Made by a program: the position numbers and the translations under genes. From an uncultured Bacillales bacterium (lineage in GTDB: Bacteria; Bacillota_I; Bacilli_A; RFN20; CAG-288), in the NCBI GenBank assembly GCA_949287425.1, contig CASEGJ010000003.1, positions 8,993-72,992 on the forward strand: 64,000 bases of DNA, written 5' to 3'. Below, piece by piece: positions 2,533 to 61,778 of the stretch. Positions within the stretch are counted from its first letter, which is position 1; the number at the start of each line of letters is the position of its first letter. The notes beneath the pieces were generated by a model that made no database searches, was not told the origin of the DNA, and saw only the letters and a list, made by a program, of their open reading frames with translations.

Positions 2533-2988
2533 TTATTTTTCCTGTTCAAATTCAGAAATCATATCAACTCTAATTTGATGTCTGCCTTCTAAAAATGGAG
2601 TATTTAAAAAGATTTTTGCACATTCTAATGCTTCATCTTTATCGATATATTTAGCGCCGAAAGCCATCATATTTGCATTGTTATGTTCTCTAGTTAATCT
2701 AGCTGTGTCTTTGTTATATATTAATCCACAACGAATAGATTTAACCTTGTTAGCACAAATACATACTCCTTCTCCAGTAGTGCATATCACTATTCCATAA
2801 TCAGCCTGATGTAGCTGAACTTTCTTAGCAACTTTAAAAGCAAATTCAGGATAATTACATGAAGCTTCAGAATAAGTTCCACAATCAATCAAATTATAGC
2901 CTTCTTTAATTAAATTATTAATTAAATAAGTTTTTAATTGAAATCCGCCGTGATCACTTCCAATTGCAATATTTAATTGTTTTTCCAT
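2533..2988 (-). CDS. rpiB: ribose-5-phosphate isomerase B (RpiB/LacAB family)
   Basis: 151 aa; IAIGSDHGG start, conserved Cys/His pattern of RpiB. Confidence 0.85.
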   Translation of the reverse strand: MEKQLNIAIGSDHGGFQLKTYLINNLIKEGYNLIDCGTYSEASCNYPEFAFKVAKKVQLHQADYGIVICTTGEGVCICANKVKSIRCGLIYNKDTARLTREHNNANMMAFGAKYIDKDEALECAKIFLNTPFLEGRHQIRVDMISEFEQEK

Positions 2989-2990
2989 TT

Positions 2991-3611
2991 TTATTCTCCT
3001 TTATATACTTTTAATATTTCATCAAAACTAAGTTCTCCTAATCTAATTAATTTAATTTGATTTGGATTAGTAAAATCAACTATTGTCGATGGTTTACTTG
3101 GAATGTAAGCGTCGTCAATTATATATTCAATTTGTCCTTTAAATTGATTATATACTTCTTCAGGTTTTAATAAAGGTGGCATTGAAGAAAGATTAGCTGA
3201 AGGAACTAATAATGGTTTACCAACTCTAGAAATAAAATCTTGCAACTTAGAATTAGATGATATTCTTATACCTATTGAAGGACTATTTAAGCTAACTTGA
3301 TAAGGCAAATTCGCTTTAGGTTTTAATAACAAAGTTAATGGACCAGGTACAAATTGAGAAATAACCCTTTGAATTTTATCATCAATATAAGCAAATTTAT
3401 TAAAATCAAAATCTTTTCCACCCATTAAAGTAAACGGTTTATTAGGTGGCCTTTTTTTTATTTCAACTAGTTTTAAAAAAGCTCGATAATTATCATAAAC
3501 ACATCCTAAGCCATAAACTGTTTCAGTTGGAAAAGCGATTACTTGTCCATCTTGTAAAGCTTTAACCCCTAAAGAAGAAGAAAATTTAATAAATTTAGTT
3601 GAACATTCCAT
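2991..3611 (-). CDS. tsaC: L-threonylcarbamoyladenylate synthase (YrdC/TsaC family, t6A biosynthesis)
   Basis: 206 aa; TETVYGLG motif of the YrdC fold. Confidence 0.8.
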   Translation of the reverse strand: MECSTKFIKFSSSLGVKALQDGQVIAFPTETVYGLGCVYDNYRAFLKLVEIKKRPPNKPFTLMGGKDFDFNKFAYIDDKIQRVISQFVPGPLTLLLKPKANLPYQVSLNSPSIGIRISSNSKLQDFISRVGKPLLVPSANLSSMPPLLKPEEVYNQFKGQIEYIIDDAYIPSKPSTIVDFTNPNQIKLIRLGELSFDEILKVYKGE

Positions 3612-3733: not shown

Positions 3734-6700
3734 ATGTCAAAAGTTAAATTTAATGAAATTGTTTCATCTTTAAAAAGCGAATGTGAATCCTGTCCCTTTT
3801 TAAAAATGAATTTTTCTAACATCAATCAAATAGATATAATTACTAATTCACAAGGTCTATTTTTAGAAAATTTATTTAAAAACACCTCTTTTTCGTTTGT
3901 TAATTTTTTTGATACAAATACTAGTTTAAATGATGATGTAATTAAGTTTAATCAAATTGAAATTCAAAAGAAAGCTAAATATAACATCAACGAAATTGAA
4001 GAATTATTAAAAACTCAACCTTTAAAATATAACGAATTAACAACCACTCTACTTAGCAATCAACAAAGCAAACAATTAACCTCTTTATTAAATCAAGATG
4101 ATGTTTTTCTTACTTTTTTAAACCTTTATTATCAAAAAAAGGATTCTAAAACAATATATTCAACACCTTTGTTATTTTTTAAGGTCAAATTATTTTTCAA
4201 AGATAATTCGATAAACTTATCTTTAGACTATAATACCTATCTATTTAACAGCTTAATTATCAATCAATTAAAACGCGATTATAACATCGATTTAACATAT
4301 TCAAAATACACTTTTAATTTAGAAGAATATATTTTAGAAACGCAAAAGAAAATCAGCAATTTTCATTTTGGAATCGATTGTGTTTTTTCTTTAATTAAAT
4401 TTGATGTTTTTAAATATTTAAAACTCGATACCGTTTTAGAATATTTCGATTCCAACTATCATACTAGCAATGATGTTTTTTTACATTTAAATAATGAATT
4501 TACCCCTACAAATCTCACTTATAATTCAAAATCAACTCAACTTGATTTTGTTCAACAAGCCATCAATCAATTGCAAAACCATTCAATAATTCAAGTTGAT
4601 AAATTAAACAAATTTTCCACTCGTTTTATAAAAGAAACAATTAATGAACACATATTTAAGAAACAAAACGTTCTTTTTATAACACCTTCCAAAAATAAAG
4701 AAGATGAGCTAAGGAAAATGCTTATTCAAAATTATTATGATGGCTTTTTCTTGCCGGTTCACGTTTATGATCCAAATTTTTCTATCTTTTCTTTAATTAA
4801 AAATAGCAAAAATAAAACCAATTATATTCTCGATTCAAATTTAATCTACCAAAAACAAGAAGTTTCCGAACTAAACGATGAATTTCAGCATCTTTCCTCT
4901 GAATTATGTCAAATAGGAACATCATTACAAGAAGACGATTTTGAAATTTTCACACATTATTATTCAAACGCATGTCTAGCTAATCAAATTTTTGAATTTA
5001 GAACAGATCAAGAATATTCATTTAATAATTATTTGACAGATTTAGATTTTTTAAAATTTTTAAGCGAAAATAAATACTATGATACACATGGCATTTTAAA
5101 TAATAAATATCATTTAATTTCCAATTTACTTAACGATTATGAATATGATGATTTTATTAAATTTATTAAACAAACCCTGCAAGAATTTAACATTTTTTAT
5201 CAGCTTTTAGATCAATCACATATAAAAGAGTCAAATTTTTCTAATTTTACATTTATAAATCAAGTTCTAAAAATCATTAAAGAAATAAATATATTTACCG
5301 ATTTTAATTTTTTTAATCTCGATTATTTTAATTTCGATTTTTCAAAACAAAATTTAGATTATTCTAACCAATTAAAAGATTGTTATAGAACTCATGCTTC
5401 AATTCATTTAACTTTAGATATGGTGTGTAATCAAGATGTTTGGAAATTAAATTTTCAAGATGTTTTGAACTCTTTAAAAGATAAAAAGGCAGAGAAAGAA
5501 ACGCGTAAGATGTTTAGAAACATCATCAAAATATCCCCATTTAGCAAAACGTATAAATCCGTTTTAATCTTGCTTGATAAATATATCAAAAACGAGGAAT
5601 TAACTAACCAATTAAAAGAAAAGCTTTATCCTTATTTTAAAGATGAATGTTTAAGTTTAGATGGCTTATTAAACTTAGATAAAATTGCAAAATATATAGA
5701 TAGTTATAAACAATTTCAAGCCAATCACCCTGATTACGATTTTCACAGTGATTTTACAAAACAAGTTTTTACTAACAAATCTTATTTTGAAGAAATTAAA
5801 CTCGGTATTGAGAATTTACAAAAACAATTTCAAAAGATTCAAGAAAATTTAAACAAACTATTAATTATCTTACCTAATGATAGTTTTAACTATTTAAATT
5901 CCTCTTTTGAAGAAATAAACAAACACTTAAATAATTATCTAACTGGAACCAAAGAAGAATTTATAACAGCCTTAACCTTTAATAAGCTCTACAATAAAAC
6001 ATCGTATTTTATTAAACAAGCGATTCAACAATCTCCTGCTGAAAATTTAAATAATTTTTCTATAAACTTTCAAACCTCTATCAATCAATATGTACTATTG
6101 GATAACTTCAATCGTATCGGTGGAATTAAAACTCTAGAAACAGCCAATTCTATTTTAAATGAATTTTATACTAAAAATAATTCTGTAATTGAAAACTTAG
6201 ATTTAGATTTGATTAATTTCTTTAATAAAGCTAAAGATCAATTGATTAACTTACCTTCTTTTAATCAGACTTTAAGCCAACTAAAACGCGAATATCAAAA
6301 TGGTCAAATTTATTCCTTGTTTAGAAGTATAGATGTATCTGGGTATTTGCTTTATCACCTTAATCCTATTGAAATCATCAATATTTATTCTGCGATTTAT
6401 TTAAAAAACTATAAATTTAATTTAGCTATTGTTGATTTAGAACAAATCTCATTAGAAGATTTGCTGTTCTCATTTTTATTAGCAGACAAAGTTATTCTAA
6501 TTGGAAATTTAACTCATCAAATAGAAAATTGTATTCCACATTTTCAAGCGAGTTTATCAACCGATTTATCTATATATACATACTCTTTACCAAAAGAAGT
6601 GTTAAATAGAATTATTAATTGTTTTAATAGACATAACATCAAATTAGAATTAAATAAAAAGATAGACGATTTTACTATCGGTTATTATTTTGAAGTTAAC

Positions 6701-8689: not shown

Positions 8690-8890
8690 TAATAAGGCTA
8701 AGCCTAGTAACTAATTTGTTCATTTTTAGAGAGTGTTGATTGGTGAAAATACACATTGATTAATTAGTGAATTCCAGCTTGTTTATATTCCTTATTTACA
8801 AACTAATAAGATAGATTTCAAACATCTATGAAATTGGGTGGCACCACGATAAATTCGTCCCATGTAACTGTGGGATTTTTTTATTCCAAA
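8690..8890 (+). promoter_or_regulatory. T-box riboswitch leader of serS (tRNA-Ser sensing); T-box sequence AATTGGGTGGCACCACG at 8832-8848, terminator/antiterminator 8856-8886
   Basis: Canonical T-box motif AAnnnGGGTGGnACCnCG; promoter TTGATT-N17-TATACT ~8654-8682; AGAGA (GA-motif) and UCC candidate specifier in stem I; immediately upstream of serS. Confidence 0.75.
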
Positions 8891-8904: not shown

Positions 8905-10182
8905 ATGTTAGATATAAAATTTATTAGAGAACATTTAGAAGAGGTTATTGAAAGACTTAACACTAGAAATGGCGATTATTCTTATTTAAGAGAAATTCCT
9001 AATTTAGACGCTAAAAGAAAAGAGCTCATTCAAAAAAGCGATGGTTTAAAAGCTGAAAGAAATGAAAAATCTAAACTTGTTGGCCAATATAAACGTGAAG
9101 GTAAAGACGCAAGTCAAATCATGCAAGCTATTACTAATTCCAAAGAGGAAATTGCTAAACTAGATAAAGAATTAGCAGAAATTGATGAAAAGATTAAACA
9201 AATACTATTAGCTACTCCTAATTTGCCAGATAAATCATTACCTATTGGGAAAGACGATACTTTTAATGAAGTGGTTTTTAAATGGGGTGAACCTAGACAA
9301 TTTGATTTTCCAATTCTCTCACATTGGGATTTAGGAGCTAAAAAAGGATATTTTGATCCTGAAAGAGCCGCTAAAGTAGCCGGTCCAAGATTCACTTTCT
9401 ATAAAGGTCCTTTTGCTAAACTAGAAAGAGCGGTCGCTAATTTCATGTTAGATACACATACTAAAAACGGATATACTGAAATTCTTCCTCCTTATTTAGT
9501 AAATACAGCTTCTTTTACAGGCACTGGTCAATTACCAAAATTTGCCAATCAAGCTTATCATGTCGATAATCAAACTGAAGGTGACTTCTGGATGATTCCA
9601 ACCGCTGAAGTTCCTGTTACTAACTATTTTAGAGAAGAAATTCTCGATGGAGATATCCTCCCTGTTAGATTTACAGCCTATTCTTCATGTTTTAGAGCTG
9701 AAGCTGGTGCGGCTGGAAGAGATACTCACGGATTAATTAGACAACATCAATTTCAAAAAGTTGAACTTGTAACATTTTGTAAACCTGAAGATTCTTTCAA
9801 AGAGCTTGAACATTTAACTAATGAAGCTGAAACAATTCTTCAACTATTAAAACTTCCTTATAGAAAAGTAGTATTATCTACTGGCGATGTCGGATTTAAT
9901 GCTGCAAAATGTTATGATTTAGAAGTTTGGCTACCTTCTTATAACGCCTATAAAGAAATCTCATCTTGTTCAAATGATACAGACTATCAAGCTAGAAGAA
10001 TGTCAATTAGATTCAAAAGAAGTAAAACTTCTCCAACTGAACTTGTTCATACTTTAAATGGATCAGGTCTAGCCGTTGGAAGAACTGTAGCCGCTATTAT
10101 TGAAAACTATCAAAATGCTGATGGTAGTATTACAATTCCTGATGTTTTAGTCCCATATATGGGTTGTAAAGTTATAGAATAA
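8905..10182 (+). CDS. serS: seryl-tRNA synthetase
   Basis: 425 aa; N-terminal coiled coil, class II motifs (FRxE, GLxRQHQFxKVE, GSGLAVGR). Confidence 0.95.
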   Translation: MLDIKFIREHLEEVIERLNTRNGDYSYLREIPNLDAKRKELIQKSDGLKAERNEKSKLVGQYKREGKDASQIMQAITNSKEEIAKLDKELAEIDEKIKQILLATPNLPDKSLPIGKDDTFNEVVFKWGEPRQFDFPILSHWDLGAKKGYFDPERAAKVAGPRFTFYKGPFAKLERAVANFMLDTHTKNGYTEILPPYLVNTASFTGTGQLPKFANQAYHVDNQTEGDFWMIPTAEVPVTNYFREEILDGDILPVRFTAYSSCFRAEAGAAGRDTHGLIRQHQFQKVELVTFCKPEDSFKELEHLTNEAETILQLLKLPYRKVVLSTGDVGFNAAKCYDLEVWLPSYNAYKEISSCSNDTDYQARRMSIRFKRSKTSPTELVHTLNGSGLAVGRTVAAIIENYQNADGSITIPDVLVPYMGCKVIE

Positions 10183-13522: not shown

Positions 13523-14020
13523 CTAATTAACAATTTTTAAGTATTCTAGCATAATAACAACATTCATTACATCTAATTGATTATCACGATTAACTTCTAA
13601 ATAAAAATAATTTGTCCATTTGGTATCATCAACATAAACTTTACCAACTTCTTTTTTGTTTTCATCCAAAATAACATAATTCTGAGTAAATAAATTACCA
13701 TCATATGAATAGTTTTTATAATTCAAATTAAATGATGCCTTACATAAACAAATACCTTTTCTAACAATTTTTCCTAAATTATTAGAATGAGAATCACTAA
13801 CATCAATATATGGATAAATAGAAAGTTTATGTACTTTATAATTACAAATTAAATTTTTAGATTTATCTAATAATTGTAAACTTTTAACTAACCCACTTTT
13901 ATTTAAAATATAAAAATCTGCTTTTAGAGTTTCTAAATTAATAATTTCTGTTATTGAATTTATTAAAAATTCATTTGATATTTTATATTTCAATTTGATC
14001 ATATTTCTAAATCCAAACAA
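13523..14020 (-). CDS. hypothetical protein (165 aa), first gene of the psuG-aguA-aguB operon
   Basis: ORF only; no recognisable motifs. Confidence 0.45.
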   Translation of the reverse strand: MFGFRNMIKLKYKISNEFLINSITEIINLETLKADFYILNKSGLVKSLQLLDKSKNLICNYKVHKLSIYPYIDVSDSHSNNLGKIVRKGICLCKASFNLNYKNYSYDGNLFTQNYVILDENKKEVGKVYVDDTKWTNYFYLEVNRDNQLDVMNVVIMLEYLKIVN

Positions 14021-14182
14021 TTAAATTAATAAATACACTTTTAATATTATAATATTTTTAAATTTACATCTATTATATTTTGTTAGCTTATCTACTTAAT
14101 GATTTATTTCTTGTTATAAAACCAAAGTTATTACACATACACTTATAATTTTACTTTATTCAAACTTAGAAAATTATAAAGA

Positions 14183-14565
14183 CAAAATAAAAATTCCAAG
14201 AACCCTTGGAATCTTTATAGAGGGAAGGAAATCTCATTTCGTGATACTTTCAATAGCCTTTGCTCTCTTCTTCTTTAGTGACTTTCTTCCGCATTTAACG
14301 TTTCAAATTTCGAATTTTTTTCATTATTTTCATAACTACTTTCATTACCTACACTGGTAATTACTTTTCCGTTCTACTTAACACAACCTTTGTTAAATTA
14401 GTCTTCTTTCTACTTTTTTCTTTCTACTTTCAGAAAAGTTTTATTTTTTTCCTTTTTGATATCATCTCCTACTTGTAGATTTCAACTATGCGGCTGTCTT
14501 TACTTTTTCAGGCTTTGAGTTCAGAAGTGGAACTTATTGTTCTTTATTTTTCCTTCCCTCATCTA
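14183..14565 (-). ncRNA. candidate novel structured RNA (~380 nt): own promoter, 12-bp terminal helix, AAGUAG repeats, intrinsic terminator
   Basis: No ORF >=60 aa in any frame over 14040-14730. Minus-strand TTGACT (rc 14589-14594)-N16-TAGAAT (rc 14567-14572) places the TSS at the 5' arm GAGGGAAGGAAA (rc 14549-14560), which pairs perfectly with UUUCCUUCCCUC (rc 14220-14231). The 3' arm is followed by terminator ATTCCAAG-GGTT-CTTGGAAT+U-run (14183-14212). Confidence 0.45.
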
Positions 14566-14732
14566 TATTCTACCTGAGATTTAAATAAAGTCAAGGGTAA
14601 AATCGCAAAAAATTTAAAATAGTTGAATTTTAAGCGGTTACTTAGTTTACTAACTTGTTTTAATTAACACGTTTACGTTGCGTATTTTTATTGTTTTTAA
14701 CCCTATAATTTATTTTTGTTATAATTATTTAT

Positions 14733-15596
14733 ATGAAAGTTGATAAAACTAAGCTAAAATCTTCTATCATTAAATTAACTATCTCAGCAGTTATAATTGC
14801 CGGAATTTGTGTCGGTGTATATTTTTTATATAAGCATTTTGGCTTAAATAATATAAGTGCTGATCAAATTAAAAAAATTGTTCAAGATAGTGGAGCTTAC
14901 GGAGCTATTATTTTTATTTTGATTTCTTTCTTGCAAGTTACTTTTATTCCTATTCCTTCAACTGTAACTATTGTTGCTGGTTCATATTTATTTGGCGCCA
15001 TGAATTCGTTTTGGCTTTCATATATTGGTATTTTACTTGGCTCATTTCTCGCTTTCTTTTTAGGTAGATTAATTGGGAAGCCTTTTGTTTACTGGGTGGT
15101 GGGTAGTAAAGATACTGTTGAAAAATATCTTATAAAATTAAAAGGTAAAGAAAAAATCTTACTGTTTTTTATGTTTCTATTTCCTTTCTTTCCTGATGAT
15201 GCACTATGTGCTATAGCTGGGATAACTAATTTATCTTGGATAGCATTTATATTAATGCAATTACTTACTAGAGCTATAGCTATTTTTGGCAATATATTAT
15301 TTTTATCTGGAGAATTTATTCCTTTTGATGAGCCTTGGGGAATAAGCTTAATTGTAATCCTATCTATCCTAGGTGTTGTTGGATTTATTATTTGTATGAA
15401 ATATTCAGAACAAATTCAAAACTATATAATCAAAATAATAGACAAGATATTTTTAAAGATGAAAAACAAATCGTCTAAAAATGTAAATTCTAATACTTCT
15501 ATATATCAAAATAAAGAAACCGATAATCAAAATATAACTATAGAAAATTCTATTAAAGATACATCAAGTCCAAAAGAACAAAACAAAAAAGAATAA
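14733..15596 (+). CDS. DedA/SNARE-associated (TVP38/TMEM64) family membrane protein
   Basis: 287 aa; multi-TM; conserved G-rich re-entrant helix region (VTIVAGSYLFG). Confidence 0.75.
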   Translation: MKVDKTKLKSSIIKLTISAVIIAGICVGVYFLYKHFGLNNISADQIKKIVQDSGAYGAIIFILISFLQVTFIPIPSTVTIVAGSYLFGAMNSFWLSYIGILLGSFLAFFLGRLIGKPFVYWVVGSKDTVEKYLIKLKGKEKILLFFMFLFPFFPDDALCAIAGITNLSWIAFILMQLLTRAIAIFGNILFLSGEFIPFDEPWGISLIVILSILGVVGFIICMKYSEQIQNYIIKIIDKIFLKMKNKSSKNVNSNTSIYQNKETDNQNITIENSIKDTSSPKEQNKKE

Positions 15597-61499: not shown

Positions 61500-61575
61500 T
61501 GGTGGATTAGACAGGACTCGAACCTGTAACGACCCGCTTATGAGACGGGGACTCTAACCATTGAGCTACTAATCC
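61500..61575 (-). tRNA. tRNA with anticodon CAU (elongator Met or lysidine-modified Ile2); encoded CCA
   Basis: GGATTAG acceptor/CTAATCC, D arm GCTC..GAGT, anticodon loop CUCAUAA, T arm ACAGG-TTCGAGT-CCTGT; G1-C72 so not initiator. Confidence 0.85.
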
Positions 61576-61578
61576 GAA

Positions 61579-61654
61579 TGGTAGCTGCGGGGAGGATCGA
61601 ACTCTCGACATATCGGGTATGAACCGACTGCTCTACCAACTGAGCTACGCAGCC
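61579..61654 (-). tRNA. second tRNA-CAU (Met or Ile2), encoded CCA; A50.C64 mismatch in T stem and G1.U72
   Basis: GGCTGCG acceptor, anticodon stem GTCGG/CCGAT, loop UUCAUAC, T loop TTCGATC. Confidence 0.8.
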
Positions 61655-61702
61655 ATAAATTGTTATATGTATTAAATATCGGATTGCCTTTTAAAAAAAA
61701 GC

Positions 61703-61778
61703 TGGTGGAGCTGACGAGGATCGAACTCGCTACCTCTTCCATGCCATGGAAGCGCTCTCCCAGGTGAGCTACAGCCCC
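61703..61778 (-). tRNA. tRNA-Ala (anticodon GGC), encoded CCA
   Basis: GGGGCTG acceptor with G3.U70 identity pair, anticodon loop AUGGCAU, T arm GCGAG-TTCGATC-CTCGT. Confidence 0.85.

Follow-up and report, generated by a model that had tools for sequence, protein, structure and literature searches.

The subject of this analysis is a candidate noncoding RNA (ncRNA) gene carried by an uncultured Bacillales bacterium. It lies within a stretch of 64,000 nucleotides (nt) of contig CASEGJ010000003.1 (positions 8,993 to 72,992), referred to here as the window, and an original prediction had described it as a novel structured RNA of about 380 nt. All of its features are on the minus strand of the window, and the region is read here from 14640 to 14170. 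On one side it is flanked by a divergent gene on the plus strand (14733-15596) encoding a DedA membrane protein with a VTT domain (Pfam VTT_dom), which is the sole constant neighbour of the RNA, and downstream of the RNA the window carries hyp-psuG-aguA-aguB. No open reading frame (ORF) of at least 60 amino acids was found in any frame between 14020 and 14733, as had been claimed, and the sole ORF of at least 30 amino acids there encodes 39 residues on the plus strand (14241-14360). The G+C content of the element is 28-32%, about twice that of the flanking intergenic DNA (13-16%). Between the outer ends of the closing helix described below, purines make up 68% of the RNA and C 11%, in agreement with the earlier estimate of about 70% purine with few C, and the Cs of this otherwise C-poor RNA cluster in a conserved 5' domain and in the 3' arm of the helix.

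The element has the signals expected at both ends of a transcription unit. A sigma-70-type promoter, TTGACT-16-TAGAAT, was found by promoter scan at 14594 to 14567 (10/12 matches), and the sequence GAGGGAAGGAAA begins at 14560, 7 nt past the -10, which places the presumed transcription start at 14560. This sequence forms the 5' arm (14549-14560) of a helix, P1, whose 3' arm UUUCCUUCCCUC (14220-14231) is its exact complement over 12 base pairs (bp). P1 closes the minimum free energy (MFE) fold of a 378-nt stretch (-77 kcal/mol, z = -3.9 against 100 shuffles). Inside it the same fold contains a tentative small 5' hairpin, P1a (14530-14542, GAAC-AAUAA-GUUC), and a second helix, P2, in which CUCAAAGCCU (14510-14519) is paired with AGGCUAUUGAAAGUAUCACGAAAUGAG (14233-14259). 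These enclose a variable, purine-rich interior (14260-14509, RNA nt 52-301). The terminator scan placed an A-tract, an intrinsic terminator hairpin and a U-run at 14178-14218, the hairpin itself (14218 to 14187) having 14 pairs followed by a T-run; terminator-type sites number two in 1.7 kb against 0.3 expected. The predicted promoter with its start at the closing-helix arm, the perfect 12-bp helix and the terminator directly 3' of it were thus all recovered. Within the RNA, at about 14427-14441, AACTTTTCTGAAAGT bears some resemblance to the CodY box, AATTTTCWGAAAATT.

Seryl-tRNA synthetase (SerRS) was used to locate the nearest relatives, and DedA then served as anchor for further lineages. 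Several metagenome assemblies (L001-L004) contain the window species itself at 99.4-100% identity and are uninformative for comparison. In all, the element is present in 22 assemblies representing four species-level lineages of uncultured low-GC Bacilli, namely the window species and three others. The closest relative, L006, has 82% SerRS identity to the window species and no psuG island beside serS. It carries a short element, divergent from and directly upstream of the DedA ortholog (65% identity), that consists of a promoter (TTGATT-17-TATACT) followed by AGGGAAGGAAA, a CA-rich stretch of 79 nt, UUUCCUUCCC and a terminator, giving a 99-nt RNA. The L013 group (11 assemblies) and the L024 group (4 assemblies) have elements of 284 nt and 256 nt, respectively, from P1 to P1. 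The length of the RNA is about 375 nt in the window and about 130-320 nt in relatives. The gene order differs in the other SerRS-anchored loci of relatives (L009-L012, L050-L059), and the RNA was not found in them. A PsuG search of genome contigs returned only a Peptoniphilaceae locus (44% identity), and blastn against a phage collection gave no match to the element. A pattern scan of viral contigs for a -10 followed by TGAGGGAAGGA produced 24 matches that were judged to be chance; in one of these, L080, GGGAAGGAA and UUCCUUCCC form a short hairpin, in a setting that is unrelated and of higher GC, with no T-run or terminator behind it.

Conservation was read from a four-lineage alignment (A2) together with individual folds. 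In every lineage the -10 is near consensus (TATACT, TATATT with TG, or TGCTATACT) and ends 6-7 nt before (G)AGGG. The P1 core GGGAAGG/CCUUCCC, comprising seven pairs, is unchanged on both strands in all four lineages. Differences are seen at the inner end of P1: at position 11, L013 has G-C where the other three lineages have A-U; at position 12, it is L024 that differs, with C-G in place of A-U; and the G-C at position 9 becomes G.U in L024. In each of the four folds P1 closes the molecule, with a CUC/GAG helix adjoining it. This CUC/GAG of P2 is kept throughout, the pair next to it being C-G in L024 but A-U in both the window and L013, and (U)GAG adjoins the 3' arm of P1 in all lineages. The 5' domain retains a small hairpin (loop AAUAGA, AAUAA or CAUAGA), (U/A)(U/C)CCA and A(A)CUC(C)AAA. 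Counterparts of P1a, read by eye, are GGAA-AAUAGA-UUCC in L024 and GG-CAUAGA-CC in L013; the pairing register is not strictly kept between lineages, which leaves P1a a tentative helix. The A-tract and intrinsic terminator are at the same place in all lineages, and in L013 the terminator stem has been replaced outright (CUUCUC/GAGAAG versus GAUUCCAAG/CUUGGAAUU).

The conserved portion amounts to only about 50 nt at the 5' end and about 30 nt at the 3' end, plus the terminator. No colinear similarity was detected between interiors, the best blastn-short match being a low-complexity 11-mer with E = 0.02. The P1 arms stand 317 nt apart in the window and as little as 79 nt apart in L006, where some 56 nt remain within P2, and the interior varies from about 56 to 280 nt, or about five-fold. 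The proposal of a novel structured RNA of some 380 nt therefore stands as far as an independent ncRNA candidate outside Rfam, with conserved ends, promoter and terminator, is concerned; it does not extend to the body, since the interior is unalignable and one lineage makes do with 99 nt.

The RNA is accompanied by DedA in each lineage, the flanking orthologs in L006, L013 and L024 being 65-68% identical. In all four, a TATAAT -10 (with TG in the window and L006) ends 6-7 nt before the DedA start codon, which is ATG or GTG, and there is no Shine-Dalgarno (SD) sequence (window 14697-14733, plus strand; L006 about 3467-3490; L013 about 2975-3003; L024 about 3975-4003); the DedA gene is apparently leaderless in all of them. 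Between the DedA and RNA promoters is an AT-rich palindromic box, CGCTTAAAATTCAACTATTTTAAA (14613-14636, minus strand), that has a single match in the window with 0.02 expected. It is kept in the four lineages as CGCTTAAAATTnAAyTATTTT, with the core TTAAAAT-N6-ATTTTAA, at varying distances from each promoter, and may be a shared operator or UP element. A plausible inference is that the control region of about 140-170 bp common to both genes, with this box, regulates DedA and the RNA together.

On the other side, the neighbours change. What follows the RNA is hyp-psuG-aguA-aguB in the window and, in the L013 group, serS with a T-box leader of its own. In L006/L007 and L024/L046 it is rpiB, which converges on the RNA, and there the RNA terminator is bidirectional. 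Relative to L006, the window has an inversion of about 50 kb starting right after serS (window about 10.2-61.4 kb, compared with L006 11.3-21.3 kb), such that L006 11496-21277 corresponds to window 61288-48671. A cluster of tRNA-Met, tRNA-Met and tRNA-Ala(GGC) at 61500-61778 on the minus strand marks its far breakpoint, and the presence of an rnpA-yidC-jag-mnmE block puts the inversion near the replication origin. The DedA-RNA pair has also been relocated from the groEL-rpiB interval between L006 and the window. Through both the inversion and the relocation the RNA stays with DedA. Separately, two strains of the L024 species, L024 and L046, differ several-fold more in DedA (98.3% identity), the RNA (97.3%) and the promoter region between them (95.0%) than in the adjacent genes Sua5, cpn60 and cpn10 (99.7-100%); the DedA-RNA block may be a recombination tract or local diversification spanning the pair.

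Searches for known RNA families gave no assignment for the element. With Rfam 15 at gathering thresholds, only three tRNAs were found in the whole window. Over 13950-14800 no family was matched even at E<=10, other than two chance hits on the plus strand (MIR1514 and KCNQ1OT1), and at the same threshold the homologous loci L006, L013 and L024 yielded no RNA match except a chance mir-286. ARAGORN identified no transfer-messenger RNA (tmRNA) and no tRNA-like module at the element. On these grounds it is not RNase P, signal recognition particle (SRP) RNA, 6S, tmRNA, OLE, ROOL, GOLLD, HEARO, raiA, a T-box or a catalogued riboswitch; the prediction had already set aside RNase P, tmRNA and SRP, and 6S can be added to these. 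A literature search found nothing relevant to the element. A window-wide Rfam scan at E<=0.01 adds only a T-box leader (8691-8865, plus strand) upstream of serS (8905-10182), which scores 81.5 bits (E = 4e-16) against an Rfam gathering score of 93. The default scan missed this leader because its score is below the gathering threshold, as are those of its counterparts in L006 (90 bits) and L013 (83 bits).

The element thus has what is looked for in a stand-alone small RNA (sRNA) gene, that is, its own promoter and intrinsic terminator, a position kept across species and no conserved ORF. At the level of sequence, the promoter, P1, P2, the terminator and the linkage to DedA are conserved and independent of the downstream genes, in an element with no Rfam counterpart. 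A real, independent ncRNA gene probably lies here. The account of it towards which we lean, with reservations, is that of a stand-alone, intrinsically terminated ncRNA gene transcribed by sigma-A, confined to a small clade, linked to DedA, and having a terminal handle as its core. According to this account, the first transcribed bases would pair with the last bases before the terminator to give P1 as a blunt helix of 10-12 bp, with an invariant core that looks like an SD/anti-SD duplex, and this helix would protect both ends of the RNA. Together with the small 5' hairpin and P2, P1 would make up a terminal handle of about 80 nt, the functional core of the molecule, serving as a sequence-specific recognition module for a protein or for the translation machinery, and the A-rich interior would be an evolvable expansion segment. 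A stronger argument than the covariation in P1 comes from a contrast: between lineages the interiors are randomised and the terminator stem is fully exchanged with its pairing kept, yet not one pair of the P1 core has changed. This argues that the sequence of P1 is itself read, either as a helix or through one of its strands. We infer that the RNA is transcribed, is stable, acts in trans and is recognised through the handle. As a guess at mechanism, we tentatively favour a handle that binds a protein or forms a ribonucleoprotein (RNP) over one that pairs with SD regions.

Population data on constraint in the interior are mixed. Segregating sites in the L013 species number 5 among the 284 of the RNA, compared with 75 among 1313 third-codon sites (Fisher p = 0.004, odds ratio 0.30), which indicates purifying selection on the interior within that species. 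Other observations weigh against such constraint or against the account as a whole. In the window species the corresponding figures, 1 of 341 RNA sites and 50 of 5257 third-codon sites, do not differ significantly, and between L024 and L046 divergence of the interior is not reduced (7/256 RNA sites, 18/1238 third-codon sites). The compensatory changes at the inner end of P1 are suggestive of covariation and not significant, because lineages and sequences are few: the P1 covariation score was matched by 52 of 500 shuffles (four lineages, five distinct sequences), and in L037, a strain of the L013 type, position 11 is a C.C mismatch. Duplexes between the RNA and the start of the DedA mRNA were not consistently more stable than shuffled controls, three lineages being within 1 standard deviation; in L024 the duplex was about 2 standard deviations more stable, but its pairing is scattered and not homologous between lineages. 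Finally, DedA homologs at 61% identity or less (L014-L023, L025-L029, L040-L045) have either no room for the RNA upstream or no such RNA, making the family a very narrow one.

By analogy, the RNA would work most like stable RNAs closed at their ends, in which a conserved terminal stem carries a variable body (Y RNA, 6S and Ms1), or alternatively like the C-rich sRNAs of Firmicutes. In bacterial Y RNAs, which are bound by Ro/Rsr, a terminal stem formed by both ends is the protein handle and the distal part is variable. The element shares this conserved terminal stem and variable distal part, but it has no Rfam match or tRNA-like module, and no rsr gene was seen in the neighbourhoods fetched. 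Like 6S and Ms1, which are stable RNAs that bind RNA polymerase and the latter of which varies in length between species, it has the stand-alone architecture of an abundant type of RNA, whose 5' and 3' ends pair to close a rod-like molecule that is loosely structured inside. Unlike them, it has no Rfam 6S or Ms1 match at E<=10 and no predicted central bubble with a terminal helix, and the 99-nt form of L006 is too small. The element would best be filed as a new, narrowly distributed stand-alone bacterial sRNA outside the catalogued families.

The alternative that survives best, although we consider it unlikely, is a base-pairing sRNA of the RsaE/RoxS kind, in which the pyrimidine-rich 3' arm and the UUCC(C)A and CUCC motifs of the 5' domain would block ribosome-binding sites as an anti-SD sequence and the 5' arm would mask this seed until processing. 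The 5' arm of P1 holds AAGGAA, and AAGGA is the commonest SD core here (21 of 51 genes); the 3' arm has the exact complement of AAGGAA, UUCCUU. The concentration of Cs in the conserved 5' domain and 3' arm fits this idea, and CCUCC is also present in L024. As with RsaE and RoxS, the sRNA gene is independent and has a promoter and terminator to itself, C/U-rich motifs complementary to SD sequences are conserved, and a partly masked seed is possible. On the other hand, there is no sequence or Rfam similarity to these RNAs, the element is 2-4 times longer, and its interior is hypervariable. Moreover, the main pyrimidine tract, which is the candidate seed, is fully sequestered in a perfect intramolecular helix of 10-12 bp, outside P1 the anti-SD-like motifs of both the window and L013 are weak, and the leaderless DedA mRNA offers no pairing that is consistent across lineages. 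A more elaborate possibility is that P1, mimicking the SD/anti-SD duplex of this genome, and the 5' domain form the docking module of a new, stable, clade-specific RNP or ribosome-associated RNA, which would be of a housekeeping-like class and not an ordinary regulatory sRNA, with a freely expanding interior and co-regulation with the leaderless DedA envelope gene; we regard this combination as improbable.

Less probable than simple anti-SD pairing is a protein sponge comparable to CsrB, RsmZ or CrcZ, in which AAGUAG or A/G-rich Hfq-type motifs would titrate an RNA-binding protein, as the original prediction had suggested from the AAGUAG repeats. The enrichment of these repeats in the window RNA is real, with five copies of AAGUAG (14469-14474, 14424-14429, 14410-14415, 14374-14379 and 14336-14341, minus strand) against 0.13-0.46 expected and eight of AAGUA against 0.7-1.95 expected in 341 nt (P < 0.002 relative to first-order Markov shuffles), and the A-rich interior has long unpaired stretches in the MFE fold. 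The two adjacent repeats are, however, 14 nt apart (RNA positions 132 and 146) and not 17 as stated, with the second reading AAAAGUAGAAAG, and these best two copies constitute a 14-nt tandem duplication consistent with recent slippage. The relatives have one copy (L013) or none (L024 and L006), in no case above expectation, and the interior of L006 is CA-rich and only 56 nt long. Enrichment in the window species alone does not support a conserved protein-binding array, and the repeats look like an expansion particular to one lineage. In no lineage are Hfq-type (ARN)n runs more frequent than composition would give. The resemblance to CsrB, RsmZ and CrcZ is accordingly one of length, repeats and a low-structure interior in the window species, while neither are the repeats conserved nor is GGA enriched, as estimated from base composition.

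A DNA-level element, such as an inverton or a MITE-like (miniature inverted-repeat transposable element) sequence with 12-bp terminal inverted repeats, is very improbable. The inverted repeat is perfect over 12 bp and its arms are conserved around a varying interior, but the interior has one orientation relative to DedA in 22 of 22 assemblies, the annotation shows neither a recombinase nor a transposase domain for about 10 kb around, and the repeat pair occurs once in the 64 kb of the window and nowhere else in about 470 kb of related loci. The promoter abuts one arm and the terminator the other in every lineage. Retron msr-msd RNAs are likewise closed by inverted repeats (a1/a2-like) and have a variable interior, but none of the four lineages has a reverse transcriptase gene next to the RNA.

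A coding origin, either as a decayed protein gene or as a short ORF (for a micropeptide in sense, or for a hydrophobic peptide like a type I toxin in antisense), can be given little credence. The 39-residue hydrophobic ORF at 14241-14360 on the plus strand (MILSIAFALFFFSDF...), antisense to the RNA, has a GTG start 9 nt past the SD-like arm AGGGAAGGAAA of P1. It has an 11-residue counterpart in L006, whereas L013 and L024 have no equivalently placed start codon, and sense-strand small ORFs are unrelated between lineages. The hydrophobicity is expected from translation of a pyrimidine-rich strand, of which the ORF is probably a by-product. It has no well-scoring promoter: in the interval scanned, the sole plus-strand site upstream of it (TTAATA-16-TATAAT, 14026-14053) is about 190 nt away, and the plus-strand site inside the element (14574-14603) lies downstream of the ORF. 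An intact long ORF is missing from this position in every lineage, which makes a decayed gene unlikely. A type III toxin-antitoxin locus like ToxIN is not indicated either, as the tandem repeats of about 35 nt are absent and there is only the single 14-nt duplication; the first ORF of the downstream operon (159 amino acids) has no Pfam, NCBIfam or PADLOC match and is found in one species only, compared with four lineages for the RNA. That ORF (13523-14002, minus strand) is an orphan, found in its own species only among 5.8 billion proteins, and its single-sequence AlphaFold2 model (mean predicted local distance difference test score 33) is unusable.

Equally hard to credit is the other reading offered by the original prediction, a large cis-acting leader of hyp-psuG-aguA-aguB (riboswitch-like, or a protein-controlled attenuator) with the terminator as expression platform: the RNA is co-oriented with the operon, and its 3' end, marked by a terminator, is separated from the operon downstream by about 165-185 nt, but psuG/aguAB synteny is not retained in any relative, where rpiB or the T-box and serS follow instead, the first operon gene is confined to the window species, no pairing that competes with the terminator was seen in the folds, and the interior is not conserved as an aptamer would be, so that with differing downstream neighbours and a constant DedA this reading is essentially refuted.

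If the element is transcribed, it would represent a new orphan sRNA family in the poorly studied, uncultured Bacilli of gut and fermenter. Its practical impact would be limited because the family is narrow and its hosts are uncultured. Its evolution is unusual in that an end-closing helix of invariant sequence encloses an interior that varies about five-fold in length, and with invariant ends and a variable body it is the ends, not the body, that look functional. The strict linkage to a leaderless DedA gene provides a concrete lead to co-regulation with envelope or lipid-carrier physiology in these bacteria.

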